Origin: Steroidobacteraceae bacterium | GTDB lineage: Bacteria > Pseudomonadota > Gammaproteobacteria > Steroidobacterales > Steroidobacteraceae | Reading direction: 5' to 3' | NCBI GenBank assembly: GCA_049508555.1 | Contig: JBELAR010000001.1 | Span: forward strand, 1-55,980 | DNA length: 55,980 bases | Shown: positions 2,462 to 17,792 of the stretch, in pieces | Layout of the letters: each line of letters starts with the position of its first letter | Numbering within the stretch: the stretch's first letter is position 1 | The notes under the pieces: generated by a model | What the model was told of the DNA's origin: nothing | What the model saw: only the letters and a program-made list of their open reading frames with translations | The model's database searches: none | Program-made: the position numbers and the translations under genes

Positions 2462-2510
2462 CGTTGCTCCAACATACCAGAGATCCTTGAGCTGTTGTGG
2501 TCACCGCGTC

Positions 2511-3332: not shown

Positions 3333-3355
3333 GCGCCACTTGGCCAAAATCTAGA

Positions 3356-5077: not shown

Positions 5078-5128
5078 TTTCCGACATTCGGGTGCTTGCG
5101 ACTATCAGACTTAGCTGCGCTTGCAAAG

Positions 5129-6916
5129 TTACCAGGCCGCACACACCTCTGGCGTCGCCATCAGCTCATCGTACTTTCCGCTTCGGATTAGTCTCCCGGC
5201 TTCCAGCTCGAAGATCAGATCGCAATGCCGGAGCGTGGTGCGGCGATGAGCGATCAGCAGAATCGTCCGATCTCGCCGAAGTGCCTGCAGCGTATCGACT
5301 ATCGCTTGCTCGGCGGCCGCGTCCAGCGCACCGGTCGCCTCGTCCATGATCAAGACCGAGGCGTCACGATACAGCGCCCGCGCGATCCCCAAACGTTGTC
5401 GCTGCCCACCACTCAGGCGGCTACCTCGTTCACCCAGCACTTCGCTGTATCCGTTGGGCAATGCCGCCACGCAGTCGTCCAATCGGGCGAGCGTGGCCGC
5501 CGAGCGGACACGCGTCAGATCGATCTGAGAAACCGTGACTCCAAGGGCGATGTTCTCGGACAGCGCGGTATCGAGCAGAAAGATCTGCTGCGGGACGTAG
5601 GCAATTACCGATTGCCAAGCACGGCGATTGACGTCATCGACGACCATTCCATCAATTGCCAAGTGCCCTGACTCCGGGACCAGCAGCCCGGCTAACAGAT
5701 CAACCAGAGTGGTTTTGCCCGAGCCATTGGCGCCGATGAATCCGACCATTGCGCCGCTCGGAATGCGCAGCGTAACATTCGAGACTGCGGCCGGAAGCTC
5801 GGCGGTATGACGATACGAGACGGCTTCCAGCCTGATGTCGTGGCGGGGCCTGCCGCGCCAGGAGCGATCCGTCGGAGCGCAGCGAAGCAGGGGTCTGCCC
5901 GCCCGTGCTTGCCGCAAATCGGCGGCGATGCCCTCGAACGCCGGACGCTCTCCACGGATCCTCACAATGGCCGCAAAAGCTTGCTGCAATGCGGGCAATA
6001 ACCGGTAAGCGGCAAGCCCAATGAACGTGAGCTGCGCGATCCACGGACTCGCTACCTCGCTGCGGCCACTCAAGTAAAGGGCGGTTCCGACCAGGCTGCA
6101 AACAGTAACGCATTCCAGAAAGTGACGCGGGCTCTGCGAGATTGCAAGGGTGCTGACTATCGTCTTGGAAATCGATCTGCAACGCTCCGTAAACTTATCG
6201 ACGAACAGCGGCTGCGCCTGCTGCAGGATGATCTCCTTGATCGCGCCGAAGCTCTCGCCGACCAGTTTGGTCCGCGCGACGAATTCGTGACTTTCCTTCA
6301 GCCCGTTTCGCAGCAGCTTGCCGCGGGCCATGGCGTAGATTGCGCCGTAGCTTATGGTCAATGTGGCGAAAGCAGCGATCGCGACCAGCGGGTTGAAAAA
6401 CACGATCGAGGCCACGATGAAAGCGATTGTCACCAGGTTGGTGATGAGAATTAGGCCGCTCTGGAGGATTCCTGTGGTGACTCGGGCGGTCTCATAAAGT
6501 ACTTTGCTCGACAGCGTCGAACTGTTGGTTATCGAATGAAACGCGTAGCTCCGGTAAAGGTATTCTTCGAATAAGGCTGCACAAAACGTGTCACCGACCT
6601 GGAAAGCGAAGCGATTCATCGTCAGCGACCCAATCAGGTTGATGGCATTTGCAAGCGCGATTACGCTAGCAAACGCCGCTCCAAGCGCGAGGACGAAGCG
6701 GCGCTCACTGTCAAAGTGCAAGTGTAAATAGAGAAAGTGCAGCAACGCACTACGATCGACCGCATTTGGATCCGCCAGTACGCTGAAGAAGGGCACCACC
6801 GCGGCAATTCCACCCACAGTCGAGACTGCCATAAGTGCACACAGCAGTTGCAGCACGACCAACCGTCGTCGCTGCCGCCGGTCAAGCAGACGCCATACAG
6901 CTGGCAGTATCTTCAT
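5129..6916 (-). CDS. ABC exporter, fused permease/ATPase (MsbA-like half transporter)
   Basis: ATG at 6916, 7 nt after the upstream GT stop; the ORF-track start at 7114 overlaps that GT. N-terminal TM domain. Walker A 'GANGSGKTT', signature 'LSGGQRQR', Walker B 'VLIMDEAT'. No peptidase domain. Confidence 0.9.
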   Translation of the reverse strand: MKILPAVWRLLDRRQRRRLVVLQLLCALMAVSTVGGIAAVVPFFSVLADPNAVDRSALLHFLYLHLHFDSERRFVLALGAAFASVIALANAINLIGSLTMNRFAFQVGDTFCAALFEEYLYRSYAFHSITNSSTLSSKVLYETARVTTGILQSGLILITNLVTIAFIVASIVFFNPLVAIAAFATLTISYGAIYAMARGKLLRNGLKESHEFVARTKLVGESFGAIKEIILQQAQPLFVDKFTERCRSISKTIVSTLAISQSPRHFLECVTVCSLVGTALYLSGRSEVASPWIAQLTFIGLAAYRLLPALQQAFAAIVRIRGERPAFEGIAADLRQARAGRPLLRCAPTDRSWRGRPRHDIRLEAVSYRHTAELPAAVSNVTLRIPSGAMVGFIGANGSGKTTLVDLLAGLLVPESGHLAIDGMVVDDVNRRAWQSVIAYVPQQIFLLDTALSENIALGVTVSQIDLTRVRSAATLARLDDCVAALPNGYSEVLGERGSRLSGGQRQRLGIARALYRDASVLIMDEATGALDAAAEQAIVDTLQALRRDRTILLIAHRRTTLRHCDLIFELEAGRLIRSGKYDELMATPEVCAAW

Positions 6917-6923
6917 GGGACAT

Positions 6924-8051
6924 TCATATCTGCTGGCGTTGCAGCAGATCCTGGTACATCGCATGCAGTTTTCGGCCGAGCGCAGTACAAGACAACTCCG
7001 CATCGAAATGCGCTCGTACCGCCTCACGTATTGTTGGCTGCGGCTTTGACGCCAGCGACAACAGAGCCTGGCACAACTCGCGCGGGTCGCCACACTGCCA
7101 CAGTGCCCCCACAATGCCGTCCCCGGTGAGCGAGCGAAACGATGGGATGTCAGTTACGACTGGCGGTAATCCGCAGGCGAGCGCCTCGATCAGAGAATAG
7201 CCGCTACCTTCCCGGTGACTGCCCAACACGAAGAAGTCGGCCGCCCGCATCAGTTGCTCGATTCTGTCATGGGGTACGCGGCCCAGCAGATGAACTCTGC
7301 CGCGCAATAGCGGATCGAGGGCAATTCGACGTTGAACCGCGTGCAGCAGCGGTGCAGTACCGAAGCAGCAATAAACCTGCAGATCCGGCAGCACGGGTGC
7401 AGCCTTGCTGATGCCCTCCAACATCGTGAGCGGATCCTTGTTGGCATCCAGATGTCCAACCCACAGTAGCAGCGGGCTGCCCTTCAGACCGGTCGCGCGG
7501 CGTGCTTCTTCCTTATCGCCCGGCGCGAAGCGACTGGTGGATTCAGGAATTTCATATACCTTTGTGCGCGGCTGTATGTGACCGGCAGTTACAAACGGCT
7601 GTGCCTGCCGCTTTGAACAGAATGCGATTCCCGACGCCACAGCTAGCCCGCGTCGCCATATTCGACGCCGCCACGGCCGTGGCGGTCGGTTTGCGTGATC
7701 CTGCAGCAGGAGCGGAATTCCCGTGGTGTCGGCTGCCAGGGACAGAACGTCGCGCGCGAAGCCGAGACCTTGTACGTGCAGCACCTCGGGAGCGATCTTG
7801 CGCAGCAGTTCGGCAAGCGCCCCGGCCGTGTCCCTCACGGTCGCGATGCCTCGGCCGAACGGCAGAAAATGGTAGCTCACGCCGTTGCGTATCAGGTGCT
7901 GCGAGTTGCGGCAAGCCTGTACGACTGAAATTCGGATGCCCGCGCGGGACGCGGCTTCAGCCACATCAACCAGAGTCGGCCAGTCGAGTAGAAGCTGCTC
8001 CGGGGCGCGCCCTTGAGGGTCGGCGAAGAAACTAATCTGGGCGACGTGCAA
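6924..8051 (-). CDS. glycosyltransferase, GT-B fold (GT4-like)
   Basis: 375 aa. C-terminal 'SHREGSGYSLIEALACGLPPVVTDIPSF' is the GT4 E-x7-E region. Confidence 0.8.
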   Translation of the reverse strand: MHVAQISFFADPQGRAPEQLLLDWPTLVDVAEAASRAGIRISVVQACRNSQHLIRNGVSYHFLPFGRGIATVRDTAGALAELLRKIAPEVLHVQGLGFARDVLSLAADTTGIPLLLQDHANRPPRPWRRRIWRRGLAVASGIAFCSKRQAQPFVTAGHIQPRTKVYEIPESTSRFAPGDKEEARRATGLKGSPLLLWVGHLDANKDPLTMLEGISKAAPVLPDLQVYCCFGTAPLLHAVQRRIALDPLLRGRVHLLGRVPHDRIEQLMRAADFFVLGSHREGSGYSLIEALACGLPPVVTDIPSFRSLTGDGIVGALWQCGDPRELCQALLSLASKPQPTIREAVRAHFDAELSCTALGRKLHAMYQDLLQRQQI

Positions 8052-8068
8052 CTTCGGCTACCTGTGCA

Positions 8069-9577
8069 TCAGAGGCCCGAAACGCGCGGATCCCACAGGC
8101 GGATGAAGCGCTTCGACCATTCGAGCTCCCATGGGCGCTCATATCGCTGACGTGTATAGCGCCACGATGCGAGCGTGCGCAGCGCCAACTTGCCCCAGGA
8201 TGGCGAGCGGACGTCCGTGATGGTCGGGAATCTACACCCGAGAACGGTCGTGAAATCGCGGATCCGACTGCGCAAACGCGGAGTGAGCCACGGTGTGTCG
8301 GTGTGGCACCAGTACCTGATCCATTGGGGTTGGGCCCACTCATCGGCGGTCGCTGGAAACGCCAGCGGCCTGCCGAAGCCGTCCCGCAGCGCGCTCACGG
8401 AACGCTCGACCTGCGCACTGTTGCTGCAGGGTGCCGGCGGCAGCGGTGCGTACACGTAGAGCATGATCTCCGTCTTCGGATGGATCCGCTTGATGTGACG
8501 GATAAACGCGAAGGTTTTTTCTGTTTCGCCCTCAGGGTCCTGCGGAGGCGCCAGCATGAACGACAATTCCGGAATCACTCCGTGGCGGCGGCACTGCTCG
8601 ACGGCTTCGAGAGTTTGATCGATTCGGGTGCCCTTGCGGACATCGTGCAGCAGCCAGTCGCTAGGGGATTCCGCGCCGATATAGGCCATCCGCAGCTGAC
8701 TCTTTTGGACCAGCGCCCAAGAACGCTCTGATAGATTCAACAGCGCGTCAGAGCGCGCAAAGCACCACCACGGCAACTGAAATTTCGCCAGTACCTCGAG
8801 CAGCGGCACCATGTCGACCTCACGATCGAAAAAATTATGGTCATAGAAATTAACCGAGTCGACTCCGTACTGCGCCGTCAGGAACTGCAGCTCCTGTTCG
8901 AGCCGCTCTGGCGCCGGCAGCGCAGTTTTGCCCCGAAACATGGCCGCCACGCCGCAGAAGGTACAGCGGAATCGGCAACCCAAAGCGGCCTGGTAACCGA
9001 TCGTGCGCCGCCCGAGATAGGTTCTGCCCAGATAGCGCAGCGGGTTCCCCAATCGCTCGTAGGGCAGCCTTCTCATAAGACCTGCCGTTGCAAACGCACG
9101 ATTCTGGTTATGGACGATTCGCTCCCCCGAGCGCCAGGACAGTCCCGGAATCGAAGCAAGCGCAGCGTCATCGCCGCAAAACAGTGCGTCCAGGATTTCG
9201 CAGAGCGTGGCCTCTCCCTGGCCTCTGATCGCATAGTCAACGTATGGCGTATTGAGACTGGCTTCGGCGCAGATGGTCGGATAGTGGCCGCCCCAGATGA
9301 TGGGTGTTGCCGGAAACCTCGTGCGGATAGCGCGCGAGACGGATATCGCCGTTCGAAGCTGTGGGCCTCCCATGACGCTGATACCGACTGCATCGACGCG
9401 TCCGCCCTCAAGGGTACGTATCGTGGTGGCGACGAAGTCCCGGTCGATATTGCCGTCGATGATGCTGGATTCGTACCTGCCGTCGAGCGACGCGGACAAA
9501 TTGAGCACCGCGAGCGGAAACCGGGCGCTGCGTCGCGACGTCATCGTCGGGTTGATCAGCAGGATGTGTCTGGACAT
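8069..9577 (-). CDS. B12-binding domain radical SAM protein
   Basis: 502 aa. N-terminal cobalamin-binding-like Rossmann region ('ILLINPT...VDAVGISVMGG...PIIWGGHYPT'), then CxxxCxxC 'CRFRCTFCG'. Confidence 0.85.
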   Translation of the reverse strand: MSRHILLINPTMTSRRSARFPLAVLNLSASLDGRYESSIIDGNIDRDFVATTIRTLEGGRVDAVGISVMGGPQLRTAISVSRAIRTRFPATPIIWGGHYPTICAEASLNTPYVDYAIRGQGEATLCEILDALFCGDDAALASIPGLSWRSGERIVHNQNRAFATAGLMRRLPYERLGNPLRYLGRTYLGRRTIGYQAALGCRFRCTFCGVAAMFRGKTALPAPERLEQELQFLTAQYGVDSVNFYDHNFFDREVDMVPLLEVLAKFQLPWWCFARSDALLNLSERSWALVQKSQLRMAYIGAESPSDWLLHDVRKGTRIDQTLEAVEQCRRHGVIPELSFMLAPPQDPEGETEKTFAFIRHIKRIHPKTEIMLYVYAPLPPAPCSNSAQVERSVSALRDGFGRPLAFPATADEWAQPQWIRYWCHTDTPWLTPRLRSRIRDFTTVLGCRFPTITDVRSPSWGKLALRTLASWRYTRQRYERPWELEWSKRFIRLWDPRVSGL

Positions 9578-9579
9578 GC

Positions 9580-10755
9580 TTATGCTGCCCGCCAGGTCAC
9601 ATTTACAAGCTCGAGACCCTCTGCGCTTGCGCTGGCGTTGGACAGAATCGCGGCCAGGCTGGTGTCAAGCATCTTCGTTCTGCCATCGACGCGCACTTCG
9701 ACCCAATGCGAGATAGGTGCCGTGCTCAGGGCGTAGTCTTTATCCCCGTAGCGTGCGATACCCGCCAGTAGCACGAGACGTACATCGGTGCGCCGTGCCC
9801 TCGCGAGCGGCATATTCGCGGGAAGGATCAAAATATCGGCGCGAGCTCCCGCACGCAGTGTGCCGCGATCGGACAGCCGCAATAGCCGCGCGCTGTGGTG
9901 AGTCACCAGCGATTGCAGCGTGGGATCATCTAACCGGCCCGCTTCTGCAGCGACCCCAAGCTCCTCGAGCAAGTCGCGCGCGCCACTCAAGCGCGAGTCA
10001 GTACCGAGTGCGACCCGCCCGGCTGCTAGCAGGTCGGTGATGTCCGCAGTCCTGCCGAATAATCGCAGATTCGAGGACGGACACCAGATAAGTCCCGCCC
10101 TGGCACGTTCGAGCCGCAATCGCTGTGCGCGGTCGAGGGCGACGCCGTGCACTATTAAGGTATTTGGCCCAAGGCAGCCAAGCGCATCGAGACGTTCAAA
10201 TTCATTCCCCGCCTCCTGGTCCAGCCCCTCAGCCGCGTGGATGATCCATGGCCATTCAGGGGGTGTGCTCTGATACACGCTGCGCACTTTCTGTTCGCCG
10301 TCCATGTACAAGGAGTGAGACCAGCCGTAATCAGTGACGACCCGCGTGGGAAAGCATGGATTCAACAAGTCTGGATACAGCGGGTCGTGGTGCGCGACGG
10401 TGGTGACGCCGCTCAACAAGTTCTTCATTCCACCTATAGCCAAACGCTCATCGCGAGGGACGGCGACACGCGCTTCGAATGCCGGATCGGATCCCCGACG
10501 CGTGTTGATATCTGCAATCCATTCGCGCACGTGACGATAGTGTGTAACCGATTCGAGGTCAGGCAGGTTATTAAGCTGCAAATGGTCATGTGCATTGATC
10601 AACCCCGGTAACAGCCGATCGCCCTGCAAGTCGATGACTCGATCGCCTGCATGGGGAGCCGCCCCCAACGCAGCAATAGATGAGCCGCGAATGCGCAAGG
10701 TGGTCGTATCACCGCCCATCTGAGCATTGATGAATGTCAGACCGTCGCGGAACAT
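9580..10755 (-). CDS. metal-dependent amidohydrolase family protein
   Basis: ATG at 10755, 7 nt after the upstream stop. HxH metal motif 'GLINAHDHLQLN'. Later 'IIHAAEG', 'VHGV' and 'GTDS' fit the amidohydrolase superfamily. Confidence 0.8.
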   Translation of the reverse strand: MFRDGLTFINAQMGGDTTTLRIRGSSIAALGAAPHAGDRVIDLQGDRLLPGLINAHDHLQLNNLPDLESVTHYRHVREWIADINTRRGSDPAFEARVAVPRDERLAIGGMKNLLSGVTTVAHHDPLYPDLLNPCFPTRVVTDYGWSHSLYMDGEQKVRSVYQSTPPEWPWIIHAAEGLDQEAGNEFERLDALGCLGPNTLIVHGVALDRAQRLRLERARAGLIWCPSSNLRLFGRTADITDLLAAGRVALGTDSRLSGARDLLEELGVAAEAGRLDDPTLQSLVTHHSARLLRLSDRGTLRAGARADILILPANMPLARARRTDVRLVLLAGIARYGDKDYALSTAPISHWVEVRVDGRTKMLDTSLAAILSNASASAEGLELVNVTWRAA

Positions 10756-10762
10756 CACGTTA

Positions 10763-11437: not shown

Positions 11438-12528
11438 ACAGTCGCCGACGACGCCGGTCCCCTTGTTCGGACCGAGGTCTCGATGTGGTCGGGATCTCGC
11501 CACAGCGTGCAAACGCAGGTCCTGCATTCGATACGCGCACCCGTCCGGATGGCCGTGCGCAGCCCCACCATGGAATTGCTGTTGAGCACAGCCGCAAGCT
11601 CACCGTCGTGTGCCGCGCCGGCGCCCGATATTTGAGCGGCGGGAGGTCCCGAAATAAAAAAGCACGGTTGCACGCGGCCACTCGCACCAATCACAGCGGA
11701 GAATTCCGGCGCGTTGCATCGAACCGGAGGGTACGTCCCCTGCCCTTGGATGGCGGCGAAGTATTGCAGGAGGCGCCGCAACTTCTGCGGGCTTTCTGCG
11801 ATGAACCCAGAGCGAAATTCCTCGGCATTATCCTGCTCCAGGGAACGCAAGACCTGGTCGAAAACCGGCAAATCCTCCGGGTGTAGCGCCAAATCAGCGC
11901 CAAAATCATCCGTGCGGCCGAAGGCGTGCGGGTTCGCTACGTCGACCGCGAGAAAGGAAACCTCGCGAGCGCCAAGCGCCTTCGTCAACGCGACGAAGCT
12001 CGGCAATTGCCGGTAGTTGGCACGCTGTAGTGTGACTCGAATGCTCGGTGGCAAGCCGTGGGCGCCCACCGCGCGAATGCCTTCGCAAACCTTATCGAAC
12101 GCGTCCAAACCGCGAATCGCCGCGTAGGTCTCGGAATCGGTTCCGTCCAGCGACGCTGTGATGGAATCGAACAGCTCGGCCGCGCGGGGCGCGTGCTTGG
12201 CTAAGGCCAGACCCGAAGTCAACAGCCATACCTGATGACCGTTCGCCCGCAGCAACTGCGCAATCGGCGCCCAGTCGGGATTGAGTAGCGGTTCGCCGCC
12301 GGATAGGAGCACCACCTGGGTTCGTAGTCGAGCCAGACTGGGCAGCAAACGCGCCACCGCCGCCAGGTTCATGTCGTTGCGACCATGCCGCCAGTAGTCA
12401 CACGAGACACAACGCGAGTTGCAACGCTCACTCACATACAGCGTAACCAGGGGCAGCCGGCGAAGGGGCAGCGGGGCCGCGGCTGGGTCAGCGCGCAAAT
12501 GGCAACTCCCGGATTCGAGCATCGTCAC
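11434..12528 (-). CDS. radical SAM protein with Cys-rich C-terminal (SPASM-like) extension
   Basis: 'ERCNSRCVSCDYW' is a CxxxCxxC cluster, followed by 'LLSGGEPLL'. C-terminal Cys pattern 'VRCNAP...VQPCFF...ECRTCVC'. GTG start at 12528 (ATG alternative at 12522), 12 nt after the anti-sigma stop. Confidence 0.85.
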   Translation of the reverse strand: MTMLESGSCHLRADPAAAPLPLRRLPLVTLYVSERCNSRCVSCDYWRHGRNDMNLAAVARLLPSLARLRTQVVLLSGGEPLLNPDWAPIAQLLRANGHQVWLLTSGLALAKHAPRAAELFDSITASLDGTDSETYAAIRGLDAFDKVCEGIRAVGAHGLPPSIRVTLQRANYRQLPSFVALTKALGAREVSFLAVDVANPHAFGRTDDFGADLALHPEDLPVFDQVLRSLEQDNAEEFRSGFIAESPQKLRRLLQYFAAIQGQGTYPPVRCNAPEFSAVIGASGRVQPCFFISGPPAAQISGAGAAHDGELAAVLNSNSMVGLRTAIRTGARIECRTCVCTLWRDPDHIETSVRTRGPASSATV

Positions 12529-12540
12529 ATAGACGAGTAG

Positions 12541-13221
12541 TCATGGTCGTGAAGCGCGTAACCCTGTATCGATAGGCTCGGCGAGGCGGACGTGTGGGTT
12601 CCTGCGCAACTCGCGCAGCGCCCCCTCGGTCGCGGCAGCGGTTGCATCGGTGATGGGCGCCAGCGACCAGATTCCGGCATCCCCGGGTCCGGCGACCACC
12701 TGCAGATGCGCGGCGTTGAGCAAGACTCGTAGCTGCTCGAGTGTCATGCCTGGCGCCAGCACGACTCGAATGGTAGCGGCAGCACTCACATGATCGGGGT
12801 CAGACAACGTGTGGTAGGCGCTCGGCGGCTGCGATGCAACCCTGTTGATCCGGGATGCCGCAGAAAGAGCCCCCAGCGCCACGGCCTCAACCACCACCGC
12901 GGCCACGAGCCACCGGGTTGTGGCATGCATGGACGCACCCGCTCGCTCCGGGTCGGGCTCGCGCCGGCGAGGAGGGAACCTCTCCCCGTTGTCGAGGCGC
13001 GCGCATAGGCTGTGCCAGCCCTTCTCAACGTCGCCAAGGTCAGCCTGCGGAGCACTCAACGCAGCCTGTACGCGCTCCTGAAACGCCAGTTCCGCACGGC
13101 AATCCGCGCAAAGGCGCAGGTGTTCCTGCGCTGCGCGGTATTCCGCCTGTGTCACGCTGTGGTTGACGATCCACGGAATCATTTCCCAGGCCTGCTGATG
13201 GGCTCGATTGAGGTCACTCAT
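12541..13221 (-). CDS. anti-sigma factor (zf-HC2 type), single-pass membrane protein
   Basis: N-terminal 'HLRLCADC' zinc-finger motif. One hydrophobic helix 'WLVAAVVVEAVALGALSAA'. Overlaps the upstream sigma gene by 8 nt. Paralog of 15198..15959. Confidence 0.8.
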   Translation of the reverse strand: MSDLNRAHQQAWEMIPWIVNHSVTQAEYRAAQEHLRLCADCRAELAFQERVQAALSAPQADLGDVEKGWHSLCARLDNGERFPPRRREPDPERAGASMHATTRWLVAAVVVEAVALGALSAASRINRVASQPPSAYHTLSDPDHVSAAATIRVVLAPGMTLEQLRVLLNAAHLQVVAGPGDAGIWSLAPITDATAAATEGALRELRRNPHVRLAEPIDTGLRASRP

Positions 13222-13813
13222 GGTTCTGCTCCTGATTCGGACCCCCGCCCAGAGCGGGCAGCAGATTACGTAACTTGATTCGTGCTTGAAACATGCGTGC
13301 CTTGACGGTGTTAATGGGGCAATTCATGATTGTGCCGATCTCTTCACACGAATGGCCCATGAAGTAGGCCAATTCCATGGTCGCGCGTTGCTCGGTTGGC
13401 AACGAGCGCAGCCCGCTCTCAAGCCACTCGCGCAGTTCCTCGACGGCTTGCGTGCTATCGCTAGCGGAACCGGTTTGGAGACTCTCAAACCCGCGCTCGG
13501 CTGGCAGCGGAGCGCTGCGTCGCAGCGCTTTAAGCGCGCAGCGCCAAGCGATGCCCATGATCCATGTGGAGGCTTGCGAGTCGCCCCGGAACCGCCCGGC
13601 CTTCTGCCAGACGATCCAGAAGGTATCGTTGATCGCCTCCTCGAGCGCATCACTTCTGGGGCTCAGACGCGACAGGAAGCGGCCCAATCGGCTGTGATAG
13701 TTGAAATAGAGCTGCTCGAGCGCCCGTCGCTCCCCTGCCGCGATCCGCCGCAACAATTCGCAATCGCGGCCATCGTCGCGCACCAATCCAGGATCCTGGC
13801 TACTCGCTTCCAT
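13214..13813 (-). CDS. ECF-type RNA polymerase sigma-70 family factor
   Basis: ATG at 13813. Region 2 'EAINDTFWIVWQKAGRF...STWIMGIAWR'. Region 4 HTH 'HSCEEIGTIMNCPINTVKARMFQARIKL'. Confidence 0.9.
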   Translation of the reverse strand: MEASSQDPGLVRDDGRDCELLRRIAAGERRALEQLYFNYHSRLGRFLSRLSPRSDALEEAINDTFWIVWQKAGRFRGDSQASTWIMGIAWRCALKALRRSAPLPAERGFESLQTGSASDSTQAVEELREWLESGLRSLPTEQRATMELAYFMGHSCEEIGTIMNCPINTVKARMFQARIKLRNLLPALGGGPNQEQNHE

Positions 13814-13926
13814 AGGCACAAATTCGCTCCTGCCAGTGCGTGCCGGGAACGTCAGCGAAGGTTTTAACGGCCTGCGAAGAACCGACAAAAAAGTTGAGCT
13901 TGCCTCGATTGAGCGCTGTGGCCGCG

Positions 13927-15201
13927 CTAGTTCTGCGCCAAGTTCCCAGCACAACCCGACTTGTGCAGGAGCAACCCCAGCGCCGCACAGGCATTCGGCA
14001 CGGAGGGTCGCGAGGCAGGCGTGTCCACGCCAGCCGAGGCGGTCAGAAGCATCTGCGCTTCCTGCCCACTCAGGCGACTGCGTTGCGATCGAAGCAGCGC
14101 TATGATCCCGGTAATTTCGGCTGTCGCGAGCGAGCTGCCCGAATAGAAGTCGTAGCGGCCCTCTGGGGCCAGCGACACCACATCGCGCCCCGGCGCCTCC
14201 ACCACACCGGCACTCATATGGTTAGCTTCGATAGCATCTGCGGCAATCACACCCGTTATGTCGGTTGGAAAGGAGTTTCGTAGCCCGTCCGACGGCACGG
14301 CTCCCACCACGATAATGCCAGCGTCCAACCCCCGCCGAACGAGCCGGGTAAGCAATGGATCGCTCGGGCCGCCGAGACTTAAGTTAATGATGTCCGCGCG
14401 CGCCTCAATCGCCGCGGCAATCGCCTGGGCCAGTGTGAATGTATTGCACACGGCCCCGATGCCGATGGCCGATGCGCGCCAGCACGCCTTGTAGGCCAGC
14501 AACGAAACATCCGGCGCAATGCCGACGATGCCGATGCCGTTGTTCGGGACCGCCGCAATCACGCCGGCCACTGCCGTGCCGTGCGCATCGGTGCGAAAGG
14601 ACTGGGTATCGTTGTCGACAAAATTGCGTGAAGCAATCGTGGCCGGGAGATCCGGATGATCCGTATCCACTCCGGTATCGATCACCGCCACCCGGACTCC
14701 GGCTCCCCGACTTAAGGCCTGAGCGTCCGCGATACTCATTTGCTGCACGTCGCGTTGCAGTTGCGCATACGGGTCGTTGTAGCCGCCGGCAGCAGTTTCG
14801 AAATTGAGCAACGGCTGCGCCGACTCGACCCGAGCATCGTGGGCCAGGACCGCGAGCAACCGCTGCTGGTCCATGTCCTCGGACAACTCATACACAAGGC
14901 AGTGCACATCAAGCAGGGCAATAGGCCAGCTGGCACTCTCACGTAATCGGTAATCCCTCGCCAGCGCACGACTCACCGTTCGCGCCACGCCTCCAGCCAA
15001 GTAGGGGCCGACGCCATCGTAGCCACGGGACGTAGAAGCGGCCCGAGCATGCGGCAAACTCACGGGATTGCGGACGGTGACCACGATATAGCGCTGCGGC
15101 GATGCGCGCGCCGCAAGCGACAGCGTTGCGCTCGAGCGCAGCGACTGACCCGATGTGCACGCCATCAGGCAGAGCGCGAGCGGGCCGGCAAACCATCTCA
15201 C
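13927..15201 (-). CDS. S8 (subtilisin-like) serine peptidase, probable lipoprotein
   Basis: Catalytic triad contexts 'VAVIDTGVD', 'HGTAVAGVIAA' and 'SGSSLATAEITG'; also 'INLSLGG'. N-terminus 'LALCLMAC' is lipobox-like. GTG start forms a GTGA overlap with the anti-sigma stop. Confidence 0.88.
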   Translation of the reverse strand: MRWFAGPLALCLMACTSGQSLRSSATLSLAARASPQRYIVVTVRNPVSLPHARAASTSRGYDGVGPYLAGGVARTVSRALARDYRLRESASWPIALLDVHCLVYELSEDMDQQRLLAVLAHDARVESAQPLLNFETAAGGYNDPYAQLQRDVQQMSIADAQALSRGAGVRVAVIDTGVDTDHPDLPATIASRNFVDNDTQSFRTDAHGTAVAGVIAAVPNNGIGIVGIAPDVSLLAYKACWRASAIGIGAVCNTFTLAQAIAAAIEARADIINLSLGGPSDPLLTRLVRRGLDAGIIVVGAVPSDGLRNSFPTDITGVIAADAIEANHMSAGVVEAPGRDVVSLAPEGRYDFYSGSSLATAEITGIIALLRSQRSRLSGQEAQMLLTASAGVDTPASRPSVPNACAALGLLLHKSGCAGNLAQN

Positions 15202-15959
15202 CTGTCGCCACCCGCTTCGTTCACCGCAGGCTCAACAAACATCACCCGTGTATCCGTACGCAGCGCCGCAATGGCCGCGTCCAGACGCTCCGTCGCCGAA
15301 CGTGGATCCGAAAAAGCCAGGGTGTAGGCGCCCGCATCGCTCGGACCCCGGATGATGGTCAGGGCGTTCTGCGTGAGCAGCAAGTTGAGCGCGTCCAGCG
15401 ACATGCCGGGCGAGAAGACTGCGCGGATACGCGATCCAAGTGCCACCGGCACAGGAACCGAAGTCAACGTCGTGTACCGCGGTGCTCGGTCCTGGAGTGG
15501 GGGTGAGCGATGATACAGCGACGTGCCCACGACGCCGAGGGCAATGGACTGCACGAGGGCCGCAGCAGCGAGCCAGTGCGCAGCGCCAAAGCGGCGCGCA
15601 GGCACTCCCGGGGGGGGCGCCGAGCTGAGGGGGACCGCGCGAGCCTCGCGCTCGAACTCGTCAATGCGGGCCAGCGTCTTAGCCAGGCCCGGTTGCGGTG
15701 CGTATTCCAGACTGGGCTCTGGTTTCAACAGCGTGCGCAGAGCGCGTTCACGGGCCACATCGTCGCGACAGGTCGCGCAGCGCTCCAGGTGACGCGCCAC
15801 GCGCGCGGCATCGCTCGCGCTCAGTCGCCCGGTCACATGCCAAGGCAACAGCCGTGCGGCCTCCTCCTCACAGCGGCTGTCTTCCGGATATTTATTCAGG
15901 GCCGTTCTCCCTACCCGACGCCGAGCCGGCCAGAATCGTCCGCAGCTTGCGCCGCGCAT
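15198..15959 (-). CDS. anti-sigma factor (zf-HC2 type), single-pass membrane protein
   Basis: 'HLERCATC' motif and TM 'WLAAAALVQSIALGVVGTSL'. The C-terminal domain aligns with that of 12541..13221. Start uncertain: ATG at 15959 overlaps sigma by 68 nt, and the true start may lie near 15899. Confidence 0.75.
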   Translation of the reverse strand: MRGASCGRFWPARRRVGRTALNKYPEDSRCEEEAARLLPWHVTGRLSASDAARVARHLERCATCRDDVARERALRTLLKPEPSLEYAPQPGLAKTLARIDEFEREARAVPLSSAPPPGVPARRFGAAHWLAAAALVQSIALGVVGTSLYHRSPPLQDRAPRYTTLTSVPVPVALGSRIRAVFSPGMSLDALNLLLTQNALTIIRGPSDAGAYTLAFSDPRSATERLDAAIAALRTDTRVMFVEPAVNEAGGDR

Positions 15960-16497
15960 TGAACATACGTGTCTTTACGGTGTTGACTGGGCATTCCATG
16001 ATCTCGGCAATCTCCTCGCACGAGTGATCAAGGTAATAGGTGAACTCAAGCACCAAGCGCTGCTCGAGCGGCAACTGCGCAAGCCCCGAATCGAGCAGCT
16101 GCTGCTGCTCGAGCCCCTGGGCACTATCGCTGGCGGTGGCTTCGGATTCCGCGATCTCCATTCTCATCGCGCGCTCGTGGGTGCTGGCACGGCGAATCAT
16201 GTTCAGGGCGCGGCGATAGGCAATACCCATGATCCAGGTCGATACGCGCGAGGCGTTGCGAAACTCGCCGGCACGCTGCCAGACGACCCACAGGGTGTCG
16301 TTGATGACTTCCTCCGCGTCCTCATACCGAGGCATCAGTCGGGTCAGAAACCGTGCTAGGCGGCGGTGATAGCGCAGATACAGCTCACGGAACGCATCCC
16401 GGTTTCCCGCGCTGACTCGGCACAGCAGCGCGCGCTCCAGTTCGCTACCGATTGGTCCGGCTGCGCCCGGGTCGAAACTAGAATCACCGTGTTTCAA
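15892..16497 (-). CDS. ECF-type RNA polymerase sigma-70 family factor
   Basis: TTG start at 16497 with GAGG 7 nt upstream. 'EVINDTLWVVWQRAGEF...STWIMGIAYR' and 'HSCEEIAEIMECPVNTVKTRMFNARRKL'. Paralog of 13214..13813. Confidence 0.9.
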   Translation of the reverse strand: MKHGDSSFDPGAAGPIGSELERALLCRVSAGNRDAFRELYLRYHRRLARFLTRLMPRYEDAEEVINDTLWVVWQRAGEFRNASRVSTWIMGIAYRRALNMIRRASTHERAMRMEIAESEATASDSAQGLEQQQLLDSGLAQLPLEQRLVLEFTYYLDHSCEEIAEIMECPVNTVKTRMFNARRKLRTILAGSASGRENGPE

Positions 16498-16605
16498 TGG
16501 CTTACCTCATCCTCCGGGCAGCTGAAATGGATTTGCCCAACGGTATGTACCGGGAGAGGCTCGGCCGGTTCATTGCCGTGGTACGGCGCGCGCGACCCAA
16601 TAGCC

Positions 16606-17448
16606 TCAGAAGCGCACCACCGCCGACAAAACCCAAGTGCCGTTCGCACTGGCGTCCCCATACAGGCGGGCCACGGTAGGATCGGCAATAAAGTGAGTCA
16701 GATCGAGGCTCACTCGTCGATAGATGTACTGGATCCCCGCATCGGCCGCCCAATAGCGGACGCCGAAGACGCGCTGCAGATCGTAGTAGCCGGCGCCAGC
16801 CTCGATGGCTAACCCTAGGGGTAGCGGCCACCGACCGGTCAGCTCATAGGCCAAGCTCGGGCGCCGGTCTGCAAAGCCCAGATTCGAGTACAGTGTGATG
16901 TCGGGCTGGTACGAGATCGTCGCAACCAGACGATCCAGGTAGCTCGCCGACAGCGTCAACTCATCATAGTTATAGTGCGCGGGCCGCGGATCGTCCAGGT
17001 ACAGGTAGCGGGTATAGACGAAGCTGGCATTGAAATCACCGCCCAACGGACGGCTAACGCCAGCGTAGAGATTCAGTTCCTGCGCCGATCGTGCGCCGGG
17101 ATACAGGTCAACATTGGAACCCCAAGCGCCGGCAAACCAACCCTGGGGACTGAAGTAATTCCCGCCCAGCTGCAGCGCCCCGCGATCGTAGGTCTGCGAA
17201 ACGCCTCGGAAGACGTAGTCCGTGGTCGCAGTCACTGAGGCGCTCCACGGCCCCTCGGCAGGGTAAGCCAGGAGCGGCGCGCTGGCCAGCAGCATGGCCT
17301 GGATGAGCCGCACGCCACTGCGCCCGATGCGCAGCCGACCGACCAACGTAACGGTCTGGCCTGATTCCAAACCGCTCACCGCCCTTGTTCTCATCGCGGC
17401 CAGTATGGCTGTGTCGCTGCCGGTTTCAATAACGCACTGCACTCTCAT
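16606..17448 (-). CDS. outer-membrane beta-barrel protein (TIGR02001/Gcw_chp-like)
   Basis: 'SASVTATTDYVFRGVSQT' plus alternating aromatic/Gly strands ending in '...WVLSAVVRF' (C-terminal Phe). A likelier start is GTG 17313, which gives the signal peptide 'RLIQAMLLASAPLLAYPA'. The 5' limit is uncertain. Confidence 0.7.
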   Translation of the reverse strand: MRVQCVIETGSDTAILAAMRTRAVSGLESGQTVTLVGRLRIGRSGVRLIQAMLLASAPLLAYPAEGPWSASVTATTDYVFRGVSQTYDRGALQLGGNYFSPQGWFAGAWGSNVDLYPGARSAQELNLYAGVSRPLGGDFNASFVYTRYLYLDDPRPAHYNYDELTLSASYLDRLVATISYQPDITLYSNLGFADRRPSLAYELTGRWPLPLGLAIEAGAGYYDLQRVFGVRYWAADAGIQYIYRRVSLDLTHFIADPTVARLYGDASANGTWVLSAVVRF

Positions 17449-17606
17449 CAGTTAATCGCTGCACCTCTTCAAGAAACCCCTCCAGCCGCGAGGCTACGAC
17501 AATGCAAGGGCATCTACTTCGAGCTGACCCGCGGCCTTTTCGGTAAGCATCGGGCCGCTGCTGCATTCGCGCGATCAGCCACGACAGACGCGCCGGCTAC
17601 TGGCCT

Positions 17607-17786
17607 CTAGATATCCTCCGTTGTCGTACCCGAATGGACAAATGCTCGGTTGGTCGCCGCTCTCGGCCAGGCCCCCGCGTGCATTCGCTGTCGAAAGTCC
17701 CGTTTTGGCTCCGGGACGAATAAACCAGGCTGTTCCCAGGCTGCGAAGTGTCCGCCCTTGGGGAGCTTGTCGTAGTGGATCCCGGA
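17607..17786 (-). pseudogene. 3' stump of an alpha/beta-hydrolase (epoxide-hydrolase-like) gene
   Basis: Only the C-terminal motif 'IHYDKLPKGGHFAAWEQPGLFVPE..RDFR' is present. Similarity stops where the transposase remnant begins (about 17790). No N-terminal catalytic part. Confidence 0.45.
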
Positions 17787-17792
17787 GGCGCT

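Follow-up and report, generated by a model that had tools for sequence, protein, structure and literature searches.

An ECF sigma factor array joined to one arm of a probable glycan-tailoring and export cluster in a Steroidobacteraceae bacterium

Gene content and layout of the array

The window, that is, the whole 55,980-nt stretch of Steroidobacteraceae DNA that was analysed, carries on its minus strand a run of 12 co-linear genes at 5129-17448. ORF coordinates and sequence reads agree on this run and reproduce all 11 of its junctions, as listed in a preliminary description of the locus. In the direction of reading, the genes and promoter-like elements are:

16606-17448, minus: putative outer-membrane porin of the TorF family (Gcw_chp), opening the signalling module (Pfam Gcw_chp, 62.7 bits)
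16543-16570, minus: promoter-like motif P1, AACC-N15-GGTACATAC, located 45 nt before sigma1 within the 108-nt gap
15892-16497, minus: ECF sigma factor 1, sigma1 (Pfam Sigma70_r2, r4_2 and Sigma70_ECF)
15198-15959, minus: anti-sigma factor 1 (zf-HC2 25.3 bits, above cut-off; HxxxCxxC; one TM helix)
13927-15201, minus: exported serine peptidase of the S8 (subtilisin-like) type, closing the ancestral module (Peptidase_S8, 111 bits)
13836-13863, minus: promoter-like motif P2, AACC-N15-GGCACGCAC, located 22 nt before the sigma2 ATG within the 113-nt gap
13214-13813, minus: ECF sigma factor 2, sigma2, a diverged paralog (Pfam Sigma70_r2 and r4)
12541-13221, minus: anti-sigma factor 2 (zf-HC2 19.0 bits, below cut-off; HxxxCxxC; one TM helix)
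11434-12528, minus: radical SAM enzyme with a Cys-rich, weakly SPASM- or twitch-like C-terminus (Radical_SAM 60.5 bits; SPASM 18.7 bits, short of the gathering score of 21.5)
10763-11437, minus: class I SAM methyltransferase MTa (Methyltransf_11, 67 bits)
9580-10755, minus: amidohydrolase with a complete set of metal and catalytic residues of the nucleobase-deaminase type (COG0402) (Amidohydro_1, 60 bits; Amidohydro_3)
8069-9577, minus: class B (B12-binding) radical SAM enzyme (B12-binding 55 bits, Radical_SAM 49 bits)
6924-8051, minus: GT4 glycosyltransferase GT4a (Glycos_transf_1 and Glyco_transf_4)
5129-6916, minus: fused TMD-NBD ABC exporter of the MsbA/HepA/PglK type (ABC_membrane and ABC_tran)

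The porin stop (16606) and the sigma1 start (16497) are separated by 108 nt, and sigma1 (stop 15892) overlaps anti-sigma1 by 68 nt if the latter starts at the ATG at 15959. This is the only canonical start that retains the N-terminal helix common to both anti-sigma factors; the gene-caller starts (15848 or 15836) would cut into it. A GTGA overlap (15198-15201) joins anti-sigma1 to S8, and 113 nt lie between the S8 stop (13927) and the sigma2 ATG (13813). Sigma2 and anti-sigma2 overlap by 8 nt. Only 12 nt then separate anti-sigma2 from the radical SAM gene, so that the direct physical joining of regulators to enzyme genes holds. A second GTGA overlap (11434-11437) leads into MTa, and the four last junctions, down to the ABC exporter, are gaps of 7, 2, 17 and 7 nt. 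Each of the two gaps longer than 100 nt holds a promoter-like motif, overlooked in the preliminary description. The region has a lower GC content and is flanked by mazEF and a tRNA-Ser gene.

Three parts make up the composite array: a porin/sigma/anti-sigma/S8 module, a second sigma pair and an enzyme arm. The segment 13927-17448 is orthologous to an operon (TorF-like porin, ECF sigma, anti-sigma and S8 peptidase) that stands alone, in unrelated neighbourhoods, in other Steroidobacteraceae genomes, and the 12 genes do not form a single co-conserved unit. The second sigma/anti-sigma pair (12541-13813) is diverged. The remainder (5129-12528) forms one arm of a larger cluster, with at least 17 genes in all; what had been described as a cassette ending at 5129 continues to position 98 and off the contig end, and takes in the following genes:

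4106-5077, plus: flavin-reductase-like protein, beyond the range first described (Flavin_Reduct, 26.9 bits, weak)
3356-4105, plus: methyltransferase MTb (Methyltransf_23; synteny)
2511-3332, plus: methyltransferase MTc (Methyltransf_25 and _11)
1361-2461, minus: second GT4 glycosyltransferase, GT4b (top NCBIfam match EPS EpsE-like, 92 bits)
98-1360, plus: putative nucleotidyltransferase, NTP_transf_5 (PF14907, Pfam match); the contig end cuts the cluster here

The flavin-reductase-like gene is kept alongside MTb in five loci (L009, L010, L017, L018 and L038). Beyond the NTP_transf_5 gene, L010 continues with a second B12 radical SAM gene, preceded by the motif, and then an HprK-like kinase gene.

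Signalling proteins

The porin passes the TorF-family cut-off (NCBIfam TIGR02001, 90.3 versus 47.15 bits) and is 61-67% identical to the porins of two stand-alone modules (L091 and L092). Sigma1 shares 75-78% identity with the sigma factors of stand-alone modules and 51% with sigma2, which is itself 53-56% identical to the cluster-linked sigma factors of L016, L071, L075 and L094. The two anti-sigma factors are paralogs (30% identity over 220 aa), with TM segments at residues 126-144 in the first, followed by a periplasmic C-terminal domain of about 100 aa, and at residues 101-119 in the second. Only this window and its 93%-identical relative were seen to have the second pair between the S8 and radical SAM genes. 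In the loci inspected, the S8 gene always follows the anti-sigma gene; its product has an N-terminal signal peptide with an LxxC lipobox-like motif, and its Asp/His/Ser motifs are kept in eight orthologs.

Enzymes and exporter

Pfam agrees with the enzyme identities initially proposed, including the radical SAM domain of the first enzyme; its SPASM assignment alone is weak. The best PDB sequence match of this enzyme is BlsE, a cytosylglucuronate decarboxylase (49 bits), and its top NCBIfam match is NirJ (66.5 against a cut-off of 515). MTa and the amidohydrolase are fused in L005, L078, L081, L085 and L087. The amidohydrolase residues H56, H58, H173, E176, H203 and D253 are invariant across 40 orthologs, and its nearest solved relatives are adenosine, MTA, SAH and 8-oxoguanine deaminases. 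The B12 radical SAM gene is the most conserved of all and anchors the cluster family; the fold neighbours of its modelled product are TsrM, OxsB, MgmA, TokK, CysS and AprD4. The exporter scores 246 bits against MsbA, 238 against HepA and 232 against PglK, each far below cut-off. No enzyme reaches a curated NCBIfam equivalog cut-off, and the cluster, as before, matches no named pathway. The weak best profile matches of both radical SAM enzymes include peptide maturases (ApyD, ScmF and StsB) and lipid enzymes (HpnJ and ladderane-type), which speaks against a glycan product.

Distribution in relatives

The cluster has relatives in Steroidobacteraceae, Dyella, Luteibacter, Rhodanobacter, Pseudoxanthomonas and Xanthomonas translucens; those in Acidobacteriota are distant. 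Identity of the B12 radical SAM protein is 76-93% within Steroidobacteraceae, 55-61% for most Xanthomonadales (51% for X. translucens) and 38-51% for Acidobacteriota. The exact 12-gene order was seen in this lineage alone. In the Steroidobacteraceae that have the stand-alone operon, the enzyme core adjoins ccm genes and has no sigma gene nearby. In seven loci (L010, L016, L049, L050, L055, L071 and L075) a sigma module and the B12 radical SAM gene are no more than 10 kb apart, in two orientations, and in a Rhodanobacter MAG (L039) they are about 15 kb apart on one contig. In Dyella flava the module adjoins an FdtA-to-Wzx block, and the flank ends before any B12 radical SAM gene.

A promoter motif shared by sigma genes and cluster operons

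Within the window, the bipartite motif CAACC-N15-GG(C/T)AC(T)CAC is confined to the two gaps upstream of the sigma genes. The pattern AACY-N15-GRYACNYAC matches twice in 56 kb (P1 and P2), against 0.03 matches expected. A PWM scan of 1-20.5 kb gave no further site of at least 7 bits, and the motif was not detected in it at the plus-strand genes of 2511-5077 or at GT4b. PWM scores of 10-20 bits arose in some mononucleotide shuffles, and only the exact-pattern statistics are robust. In L010, P1 has identical -35 and -10 blocks and a diverged spacer, and ACAACC stands at the position matching P2. In the stand-alone modules L091 and L092, and in L093 and L094, the motif likewise sits in the porin/sigma gap; the stand-alone operon of related genomes is a predicted autoregulated unit. 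The putative assignment of a sigma factor to the motif draws solely on this autoregulatory position. P2 is predicted to drive the eight genes from sigma2 through to the ABC exporter.

In 77 independent loci, not used in defining the motif, 40 matches were found against a simulated mean of 1.05. Most lie upstream on the same strand, before MTc (13), B12 radical SAM genes (10), radical SAM genes, ABC genes and others. AACY stands exactly 15 nt upstream of 43 of the 72 intergenic -10-like half-sites, and every other spacing occurs at most twice. In Xanthomonadales, MTc heads the tailoring operon directly downstream of the motif; loci lacking the exact pattern keep a one-mismatch site there, e.g. 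Dyella amyloliquefaciens and X. translucens. In D. flava and a Rhodanobacter MAG, motif sites flank the FdtA-to-Wzx polysaccharide operon, and in D. flava the flavin-reductase-like gene adjoins a site. Because the motif is enriched (40 versus about 1) and mostly lies just upstream of cluster operons, predicted sigma control of these operons is well supported in silico. The earlier suggestion that the sigma genes control the enzymes is thus favoured by a conserved ECF-type motif joining the two across genera.

These data bear on whether the sigma modules merely landed beside the enzyme genes in an island-like region, without regulating them. The lower GC content, the mazEF and tRNA-Ser borders, the lineage-restricted gene order and the distance between module and enzyme core in most Steroidobacteraceae would all fit such an accident. 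It is nevertheless highly improbable, given that one motif precedes sigma genes and cluster operons in many genera, unlinked genomes included, that linkage recurs in varied orientations and separate families, and that the anti-sigma2/radical SAM gap is so short.

Glycan context and nature of the product

The B12 radical SAM gene has the two GT4 glycosyltransferases as its closest partners: among 52 gammaproteobacterial loci, GT4a lies within 10 kb of it in 43 and GT4b is present in 40. In some relatives the tailoring block is set within GNAT/DegT/Wzx/GT2/9-TM Wzy-like/Wzz clusters; elsewhere it stands beside Wzm, Wzt with a Wzt_C domain and a 1031-aa double GT2, and in the lineage of the window it pairs with the fused ABC exporter. 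FdtA and a Hexapep acetyltransferase lie upstream in D. flava and the Rhodanobacter MAG, and L016 carries a sulfotransferase. The window holds no initiating phosphoglycosyltransferase, polymerase or sugar-nucleotide gene. The lack of scaffold or sugar-nucleotide genes stems from the lineage and from the edge of the window; relatives have FdtA, DegT, Wzx and Wzm/Wzt. Many acidobacterial relatives have no glycosyltransferase neighbours, so the enzyme family is not universally tied to glycans. The GT4 partners, and the pairing with Wzx/Wzy-like/Wzz, Wzm/Wzt or the fused exporter, favour a surface glycan over a peptide, and the initial choice of 'peptide, lipid or glycoconjugate' narrows to a glycan or glycoconjugate.

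A RiPP pathway is very unlikely. In it, a precursor peptide would be modified by both radical SAM enzymes, with S8 as leader peptidase and the ABC protein as exporter of the product. This reading draws on the peptide maturases already named and on weak best NCBIfam matches to WgkB and NHLP-type bacteriocin exporters, on a small Gly/Trp-repeat ORF upstream in some acidobacterial relatives, and on the ScmC-like/HprK-like kinase and NTP_transf_5 genes of the wider cluster, which are known as lasso-peptide tailoring enzymes and as such count against a glycan. However, among non-genic ORFs of at least 18 codons at 5100-17450, only one of 22 codons was found, in the convergent gap 5074-5142, which upholds the original reading that the gaps hold no precursor-peptide ORF; the array is without a small ORF, and no small-ORF family is common to the loci. 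Nor was a PqqD/RRE domain seen among the proteins given a general domain scan. S8 belongs to the sigma module and is found without the enzymes, Xanthomonadales versions of the cluster lack the SPASM-like radical SAM gene, and the constant partners are glycosyltransferases with Wzx/Wzz or Wzm/Wzt.

A membrane lipid or small glycolipid of the hopanoid-side-chain type, although unlikely, deserves more weight. A radical SAM adduct would lose an amino or acyl group, receive a sugar and undergo rearrangement or methylation by the B12 enzyme, before an MsbA-like exporter flips it. Profile matches to HpnJ (69.7 bits), HpnH (36.9), a ladderane-lipid B12 radical SAM enzyme (67-102; paralog) and MsbA are in line with this, as are weak matches of the GT4 proteins to glycolipid synthases. 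MqnE and aminofutalosine deaminase offer an analogy for deamination after 5'-deoxyadenosyl addition, a step that an adenosine-deaminase-type amidohydrolase would suit. Yet every score is far below the family cut-off, none of the loci inspected holds a squalene-hopene cyclase or lipid-synthesis gene, and the polymer machinery of relatives (Wzy-like, Wzz, Wzm/Wzt with Wzt_C, and the large double GT2) favours a polysaccharide.

Model and significance

The array probably joins an ECF sigma signalling module to one arm of a cluster for the tailoring and export of a cell-surface glycan. Gene order, domains, conservation, glycan-gene context in relatives and promoter-motif distribution were all established in silico; the following model goes beyond them, and we infer what triggers the switch, what S8 does, how the genes are transcribed, each step of the chemistry and which glycan is made. 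A signal, for which envelope stress was the earlier candidate, would free the sigma factors, perhaps via proteolysis of the anti-sigma periplasmic domain, for which the co-conserved S8 is a candidate peptidase; the Zn/Cys motif of the anti-sigma factor may provide another release route. RNA polymerase would then initiate at CAACC-N15-GG(C/T)AC(T)CAC promoters. P1 would drive sigma1, anti-sigma1 and S8, and P2 would drive sigma2 and anti-sigma2, with read-through over junctions of at most 17 nt into the six genes from the radical SAM gene to the ABC exporter.

Together with GT4b, MTb, MTc, the nucleotidyltransferase and the flavin-reductase-like protein, these enzymes would assemble or decorate an oligo- or polysaccharide linked to a lipid. 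The class B radical SAM enzyme may methylate or rearrange an unactivated carbon, the methyltransferases may act on O or N, and the deaminase-type amidohydrolase may act on the substrate or on the by-products SAH and 5'-deoxyadenosine, the fused ABC exporter finally carrying the product across the inner membrane. One promoter motif joins the switch to the enzymes in many soil bacteria, some of them culturable.

Organization and extent of the cluster

The arrangement of 12 tightly packed minus-strand genes between 5129 and 17448 is borne out by ORF coordinates and direct reading of the junctions. All 11 junctions are reproduced: two gaps exceed 100 nt (108 and 113), GTGA overlaps occur twice, one overlap spans 8 nt and one gap 12 nt, and the last four gaps measure 7, 2, 17 and 7 nt. 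For anti-sigma1, ATG 15959 is the sole canonical start that keeps the N-terminal helix common with anti-sigma2, and it gives a 68-nt overlap with sigma1. Genes in the cluster loci were called with a codon-usage caller that reproduces known genes. In public gene calls, the first radical SAM enzyme has 312 aa and starts downstream of CxxxCxxC (7206-8144 in L001 and 155-1093 in L004, two homologous loci, equivalent to window 11434-12372); read from GTG 12528 it has 364 aa and the cluster-binding cysteines are regained. Public annotation likewise shortens S8 (to 412 aa) and anti-sigma1 (to 212 aa), at the cost of the signal peptide and the N-terminal helix, respectively.

The cluster passes 5129, with five more genes down to position 98. 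Since the window is an entire 55,980-bp metagenomic contig, the cluster is cut off by the contig end. In L010, a 93%-identical relative, the region beyond the equivalent of this end holds a second B12 radical SAM gene (497 aa), with a promoter motif in front (18495-18522), and then an HprK-like/ScmC-like kinase gene (L010 16941-18980).

Features of the window
98-5077: extra cluster genes, namely a flavin-reductase-like gene, two methyltransferases (MTb, 3356-4105; MTc, 2511-3332), a second GT4 (GT4b, 1361-2461) and a PF14907 nucleotidyltransferase
5129-12528, minus strand: enzymes to ABC exporter, including MTa (10763-11437) and GT4a (6924-8051)
12541-13813, minus strand: sigma2 and anti-sigma2
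13836-13863: promoter-like site P2, in the 113-nt gap, 22 nt before sigma2
13927-17448, minus strand: sigma1, anti-sigma1, S8 peptidase and TorF-like porin
16543-16570: promoter-like site P1, in the 108-nt gap, 45 nt before sigma1
17748-18316, plus strand: two adjacent small ORFs
18537-18968, minus strand: 143-aa protein
19120-19697: mazE/mazF (PemK) toxin-antitoxin pair, right of the array
20245-20335: tRNA-Ser(GCU), right of the array

To the right of tRNA-Ser lie the housekeeping genes alaS, mutS, aspS, clpB, nadE, sucC, pilSR and pilB. GC content is 0.59-0.65 in the first 20 kb versus 0.645-0.69 at 20-50 kb. With mazEF and tRNA-Ser at its right edge, its lower GC and the ccm-side location of its counterparts elsewhere, the cluster region looks like a relocated or acquired island. 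The two small ORFs between porin and mazEF (90 and 97 aa) and the 143-aa protein, which has four predicted transmembrane helices, have no Pfam match; the first ORF (from 17748) contains …KKKRKILDEFVATTGYHEKSAIRVLN…, which may resemble transposase N-termini. An Rfam scan gives the tRNA as its sole match, with no riboswitch of any kind, cobalamin and SAM types included, and consensus scans for sigma-70 promoters and terminators give counts at chance level.

The sigma module

Both sigma factors contain only the sigma2 and sigma4 regions (Sigma70_r2, r4_2, Sigma70_ECF), with TIGR02937 scores of 84 and 66 against 42.9 bits. The anti-sigma genes overlap the sigma genes, and their products each have one transmembrane segment and an HxxxCxxC motif (HLERCATC and HLRLCADC); zf-HC2 scores are 25.3 bits, over the gathering score, and 19.0 bits, under it. 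The outer-membrane protein of the array is a putative porin of the TorF family (Gcw_chp), at 90.3 bits for the TIGR02001 subfamily versus a cut-off of 47.15. In S8 the catalytic triad is intact, and the export signal is lipobox-like in this S8 family.

The porin-sigma-anti-sigma-S8 operon is conserved, free-standing, in unrelated neighbourhoods of other Steroidobacteraceae. Judged by identity to this stand-alone module (porin 61-67%, sigma1 75-78%, anti-sigma1 55-57%, S8 67-73%), the four window genes are its orthologs. Sigma2 and anti-sigma2 are diverged paralogs (51% to sigma1, 30% to anti-sigma1), closest to the sigmas adjoining the cluster in other lineages. The position of the exported S8 gene directly after the anti-sigma gene is co-conserved across module-bearing loci.

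A sigma module lies at most 10 kb from the B12 radical SAM gene in L010, L016 and L071, where the two are co-directional, and in L049, L050, L055 and L075, where they are divergent. In a Rhodanobacter MAG (L093) the distance is about 15 kb on the same contig, where locus L039 sits; in cultured Dyella flava (L094) the module adjoins an FdtA-to-Wzx polysaccharide block, and the flank stops before any B12 radical SAM gene. After S8, FolE2 (GTP cyclohydrolase IB) is found in L075 and L094, and L075 also has multihaem cytochrome and MtrB/PioB genes there.

A predicted promoter motif shared by sigma genes and enzyme operons

Alignment of the regions upstream of sigma genes at eight loci yields the motif (G/T)(C/G)AAC(C/T)-N15-GG(C/T)AC-N-(C/T)AC. 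As AACY-N15-GRYACNYAC, it has two matches in the 56-kb window, P1 and P2, versus 0.03 expected; a position weight matrix (PWM) scan of the first 20.5 kb finds no third site. P1 has identical -35 and -10 blocks in the window and L010, with a diverged spacer. Across 77 loci outside the motif definition there are 40 matches, versus a simulated mean of 1.05 (range 0-4). They are correctly oriented and lie close upstream of MTc (13), B12 radical SAM genes (10, chiefly the second paralog), radical SAM, ABC and other genes. In six loci lacking the exact pattern, among them those of X. translucens and Dyella amyloliquefaciens, a site with one mismatch precedes MTc. In 43 of 72 intergenic -10-like half-sites, AACY occurs exactly 15 nt upstream, any other spacing being represented at most twice. 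The PWM is partly circular for its founding sites and gives occasional high scores in shuffles; the argument therefore rests on the exact-pattern counts.

Upstream of sigma genes, the motif is found in the window, L010, L016, L049, L050, L055, L071, L075 and L091-L094, always with a 15-nt spacing, and in the stand-alone modules (L091, L092) it occupies the porin/sigma gap. Dyella flava and the Rhodanobacter MAG have sites both in this gap and as a divergent pair (L093 4975-5089, L094 5105-5216) between FdtA and a cytochrome operon (L093 5170-7673) that encodes cytochromes b (Ni_hydr_CYTB) and c and a protein of about 450 aa lacking Pfam matches. The predicted regulon thus takes in redox proteins, and this may be a clue to the signal. 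In Dyella flava, an extra site precedes a methyltransferase/flavin-reductase-like pair homologous to window 3356-5077.

Divergent from the stand-alone sigma module of L091 is a gene (6635-7843, minus strand) with the motif at its 5' end (7808-7835), possibly a further regulon member; L092 has a counterpart (6451-7557, minus strand), and the two proteins (368-402 aa) give only faint SGL/NHL beta-propeller matches. A -10 variant, CACCCAC, is seen at both sigma and target promoters in L049, L050, L055 and L075, most other genomes having CACTCAC; this is a weak indication of within-genome co-variation of autoregulatory and target sites. The GGCAC element was also considered as a sigma-54 -24 box and ruled out: no conserved -12 TTGC follows it, and its partner is the AACC block 15 nt upstream.

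Taken on its distribution, the motif looks like that of an ECF sigma factor that controls its own gene and has the glycan cluster as its regulon; which sigma acts at which promoter is predicted from position alone. At the promoter position of the radical SAM operon, L007 and L015 have the motif itself, L005, L019 and L021 have PWM sites, and L016 has a weaker variant; P2 probably derives from this ancestral promoter. Accidental adjacency of sigma modules and enzymes is contradicted by the shared motif and the recurrent linkage.

Distribution of the cluster genes

The most conserved gene of the cluster encodes the B12 radical SAM enzyme. Its best 120 homologs have 76-93% identity, those named being Steroidobacteraceae MAGs, and in clusters at 50% identity the next full-length relatives stand at 47% and 39%, so that the family is tight and set apart. 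A scan of GTDB species representatives with this protein returned 80 loci, from Steroidobacteraceae, from cultured Dyella, Luteibacter, Rhodanobacter, Pseudoxanthomonas and Xanthomonas translucens (51-61% identity) and from Acidobacteriota (38-51%). In the plasmid database, all relatives are at or below 25% identity.

Co-occurrence was examined by tblastn of 17 window proteins against all loci.

Window genes found within 10 kb in 52 gammaproteobacterial-type loci
GT4a: 43/52
GT4b: 40/52
MTc: 37/52
MTa: 32/52
Amidohydrolase: 31/52
Nucleotidyltransferase: 26/52
SPASM-like radical SAM: 21/52
Fused ABC exporter: 15/52
Sigma: 5/52
S8: 4/52

The 12 genes are therefore not a single co-conserved block. 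In other Steroidobacteraceae, a core (radical SAM, MTa, amidohydrolase, B12 radical SAM, sometimes GT4a, usually then ABC) stands divergent from ccm genes, with no sigma gene nearby. The ccm genes of L009 (1-6300, a long-read metagenome contig) are split into many short ORFs, probably by assembly frameshifts, which makes gene lengths at that locus unreliable (for example, radical SAM and MTa are called as one gene).

A haem-related role, prompted by the ccm synteny and by weak NirJ, BchE and CydDC matches, was dropped because ccm genes adjoin the enzyme genes in only some Steroidobacteraceae and in neither the window nor Xanthomonadales.

In Terriglobia/Bryobacterales of the Acidobacteriota (L079-L083), several B12 radical SAM paralogs stand in tandem, five of them in L081 (3082-11461), together with a methyltransferase and a SPASM-like radical SAM gene; most of these loci have no nearby glycosyltransferase, possibly reflecting another use of the same enzyme set. 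Acidobacterial relatives often have neither glycosyltransferase neighbours nor the motif, so the conclusions hold for the gammaproteobacterial clusters.

Glycan genes around the tailoring block

In cultured Xanthomonadales, a block of MTc, amidohydrolase, MTa, B12 radical SAM, GT4a and GT4b comes straight after polysaccharide genes, namely an Acetyltransf_6 GNAT, a DegT aminotransferase, a Wzx flippase, a GT2, a 9-TM Wzy-like protein and Wzz, with FdtA and a Hexapep acetyltransferase further upstream. In other Rhodanobacteraceae, a methyltransferase, Wzm, Wzt with a Wzt_C domain and a double GT2 of 1031 aa come after the tailoring block; the export partner in the window's lineage is the fused MsbA/HepA/PglK-like ABC exporter. 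A sulfotransferase is additionally present in L016. Between genera, the tailoring block is conserved at 55-80% identity.

The window itself has several glycosyltransferases and inner-membrane export, as a polysaccharide locus does, in GT4a, GT4b and the fused ABC exporter. The reported lack of sugar-nucleotide genes holds for window 1-20 kb, where Pfam and NCBIfam reveal neither these nor an initiating phosphoglycosyltransferase, in a contig that ends within the cluster. The association of one tailoring block with three alternative glycan export routes, and most regularly of all with GT4s, suggests that the product is a lipid-linked surface glycan. For the window's own version, a lipid or glycolipid pathway is possible, as the exporter is a fused ABC protein and polymerase genes are absent, although the polymer machinery of relatives speaks against it.

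Enzymes and exporter

The domain assignments of the preliminary description are all confirmed by Pfam with one exception, the SPASM domain of the first radical SAM enzyme, which stays below threshold (PF13186, 18.7 versus a gathering score of 21.5 bits). About five cysteines are seen in its C-terminal sequence; SPASM maturases have a C-terminal 7-Cys motif for two auxiliary clusters. Its nearest solved structure is the sugar-nucleoside enzyme BlsE. The earlier statement that the genes match no named pathway also stands: no enzyme of the window cluster reaches an NCBIfam equivalog cut-off, and among all 17 window proteins and several neighbours only the TorF porin subfamily and generic ECF superfamily models pass.

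The B12 radical SAM enzyme has an N-terminal B12-binding domain (PF02310, 55.0 bits) and a PF04055 domain (49.4 bits), both exceeding gathering scores, and C201, C205 and C208 of its CxxxCxxC core are invariant in homologs. A structural model of moderate quality (pLDDT 68.7) has TsrM, OxsB, MgmA, TokK, CysS and AprD4 as fold neighbours; it confirms, within that quality, a predicted class B fold and carries no substrate clue. Named B12 radical SAM equivalogs (ApyD, BchE, HpnJ, ArsL, PhpK, HpnR, BzaD) all stay under their NCBIfam cut-offs, the best being ApyD (85.6 vs 750), BchE (79.5 vs 481) and HpnJ (69.7 vs 578); of the hopanoid side-chain equivalogs, HpnH (36.9 vs 225) falls short as does HpnJ.

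The amidohydrolase residues H56/H58, H173/E176, H203 and D253 are invariant in 40/40 orthologs and align to PDB deaminases. By this catalytic set, HxH on strand 1, HxxE on strand 5, His on strand 6 and Asp on strand 8, the protein is assigned to the COG0402 deaminase branch. Scores against deaminase equivalogs are under cut-off for 8-oxoguanine (66.4 vs 532), 5'-deoxyadenosine (51.6 vs 522), MTA/SAH (39.5 vs 779) and aminofutalosine (30.4 vs 320). In five loci of two phyla, one Steroidobacteraceae genome (L005 6636-8540) and several Acidobacteriota (L078, L081 11533-13443, L085, L087), MTa is fused to the amidohydrolase in a protein of about 620-665 aa, a Rosetta-stone link that ties the two activities together. 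By-product scavenging and action on the glycan are both possible roles. The ABC exporter misses the cut-offs of MsbA (245.6 vs 602), HepA (238 vs 725) and PglK (231.8 vs 1000); it has the same architecture as these proteins and need not be their ortholog.

Only weak profile matches and the kinase and nucleotidyltransferase neighbours speak for a RiPP pathway, which is unlikely: a conserved small ORF is absent, S8 is independent of the enzymes and the context is one of glycan genes. As reported, the gaps hold no plausible precursor: the only non-genic ORF of at least 18 codons in the array has 22 codons, in the convergent gap 5074-5142. Across the loci, BLASTP, which is insensitive for very short peptides and hence not absolute here, gives no precursor candidate and no small-ORF family common to at least five loci. 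In Acidobacteriota (L059 7192-7509, L060, L070), a conserved small ORF of about 100 aa with Gly/Phe/Trp repeats (GGxFxGGxFW-like) stands four genes upstream of a 47%-identical B12 radical SAM homolog, with intervening genes that have no Pfam match. It may be a peptide substrate, in that distant lineage alone.

Relation to known systems

AlgU(sigma22)-MucA-AlgW governs alginate synthesis in Pseudomonas aeruginosa, with RpoE-RseA-DegS as the general counterpart, and the regulatory logic proposed here would be like that of these systems. Shared features are an autoregulated ECF sigma and a single-pass membrane anti-sigma (here predicted), a periplasmic serine protease encoded with or acting on the system (here S8, as a candidate) and, as for AlgU, a sigma that directly drives a surface-polysaccharide operon (here predicted). 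Unlike DegS and AlgW (S1C PDZ), the protease is of subtilisin type S8 and lipoprotein-like in this lineage. The anti-sigma has a zinc-finger motif of HxxxCxxC type, the first gene of the operon encodes a TorF-like porin, two paralogous sigma/anti-sigma pairs stand in tandem, and the promoter is CAACC-N15-GGCACTCAC versus GAACTT-N16/17-TCtgA in AlgU/RpoE systems.

Glycan assembly follows several types, Wzx/Wzy/Wzz, Wzm/Wzt with cap binding by Wzt_C (E. coli O9a, with the WbdD kinase/methyltransferase) and fused ABC flippases such as PglK/Wzk. The enzyme content resembles an O-antigen/EPS-type locus to which class B radical SAM tailoring would have been added: O-antigen, EPS and protein-glycan loci share with it GT4 and GT2, methyltransferases, a kinase-like gene and exchangeable export routes round a constant block, the window exporter scoring near MsbA, HepA and PglK. 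Unlike them, the block has one or two class B radical SAMs, a second radical SAM and a deaminase-type amidohydrolase, a set that we know of in no characterised O-antigen or EPS locus, and its conservation between genera differs from the hypervariability of O-antigen loci.

The class B tailoring is reminiscent of GenK and GenD1, class B enzymes of gentamicin C-methylation, or of HpnJ, which acts in hopanoid cyclitol ring contraction. With these and OxsB it shares the B12-binding domain, the CxxxCxxC core and adjacent glycosyltransferases. It differs from class B sugar-tailoring enzymes in having 15-20% identity to any solved member and NCBIfam scores far under cut-offs, and in its setting, an envelope locus of mostly aerobic soil Gammaproteobacteria versus an antibiotic cluster. 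For AprD4, the sugar-acting radical SAM among the fold neighbours, cobalamin use is not known to us. The amidohydrolase has the invariant catalytic set of COG0402 deaminases (MTA/SAH, DadD, aminofutalosine, 8-oxoguanine), which are also its best PDB and NCBIfam relatives, but it is about 50-80 residues shorter and repeatedly fused to a methyltransferase. Similarity to SynChlorMet and other radical SAM/SPASM peptide-maturation cassettes extends to weak radical SAM matches to ScmF and ScmE (65 and 57 bits) and a weak match of a kinase-like neighbour to ScmC; these scores are far under the cut-offs of 400 and 125, the context is one of glycan genes, and no precursor peptide or PqqD-like partner was found. 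In the literature, that on SynChlorMet included, no characterised counterpart was found for the gene combination, for ECF with subtilisin, for B12 radical SAM with polysaccharide or O-antigen, or for HprK-like/PF14907.

Proposed working and significance

The model that follows is computational throughout, built on gene order, domains, conservation over lineages, glycan context in relatives and motif distribution. A signal would free sigma1 and sigma2, with S8 as the candidate protease and the Zn/Cys motif as an alternative route. P1 would then drive sigma1, anti-sigma1 and S8, and P2 would drive sigma2 and anti-sigma2, with read-through from the radical SAM gene to the ABC exporter, a stretch whose junctions are at most 17 nt and in whose gaps no terminator-like site was found (by a consensus scan with counts at chance level). 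The enzyme products and those of neighbouring genes would decorate a lipid-linked glycan, which the ABC exporter would carry across the inner membrane.

Read as a whole, the data allow a tentative proposal, which we put forward as one of several possibilities and hold to be rather doubtful in its full form: a dedicated ECF regulon with the -10 element GGCACTCAC, present in soil Gammaproteobacteria of two orders (with distant Acidobacteriota relatives), links an envelope signal to a surface glycan bearing a cobalamin radical SAM modification, and S8 acts on the zinc-finger anti-sigma as a site-1 protease of a new type. The -10 element would then be unusual, and the modification would be, for example, a C-methylated or ring-rearranged sugar. 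We know of no characterised envelope polysaccharide pathway with such a cobalamin radical SAM modification.

The porin, sigma, anti-sigma and S8 peptidase together make up a newly defined ECF module, and the conserved motif predicts a regulon in a directly testable form. Culturable carriers include Dyella amyloliquefaciens DHC06, D. flava, D. humi, D. psychrodurans, Luteibacter yeojuensis SU11, Rhodanobacter sp. A1T4 and Xanthomonas translucens DSM 18974; genetics and LPS/EPS chemistry are therefore feasible without the uncultured source organism. Cobalamin radical SAM chemistry is known so far mainly from antibiotics, cofactors, RiPPs and hopanoids. If the model is true, it would also be part of regulated envelope glycan synthesis in widespread soil and plant-associated bacteria.
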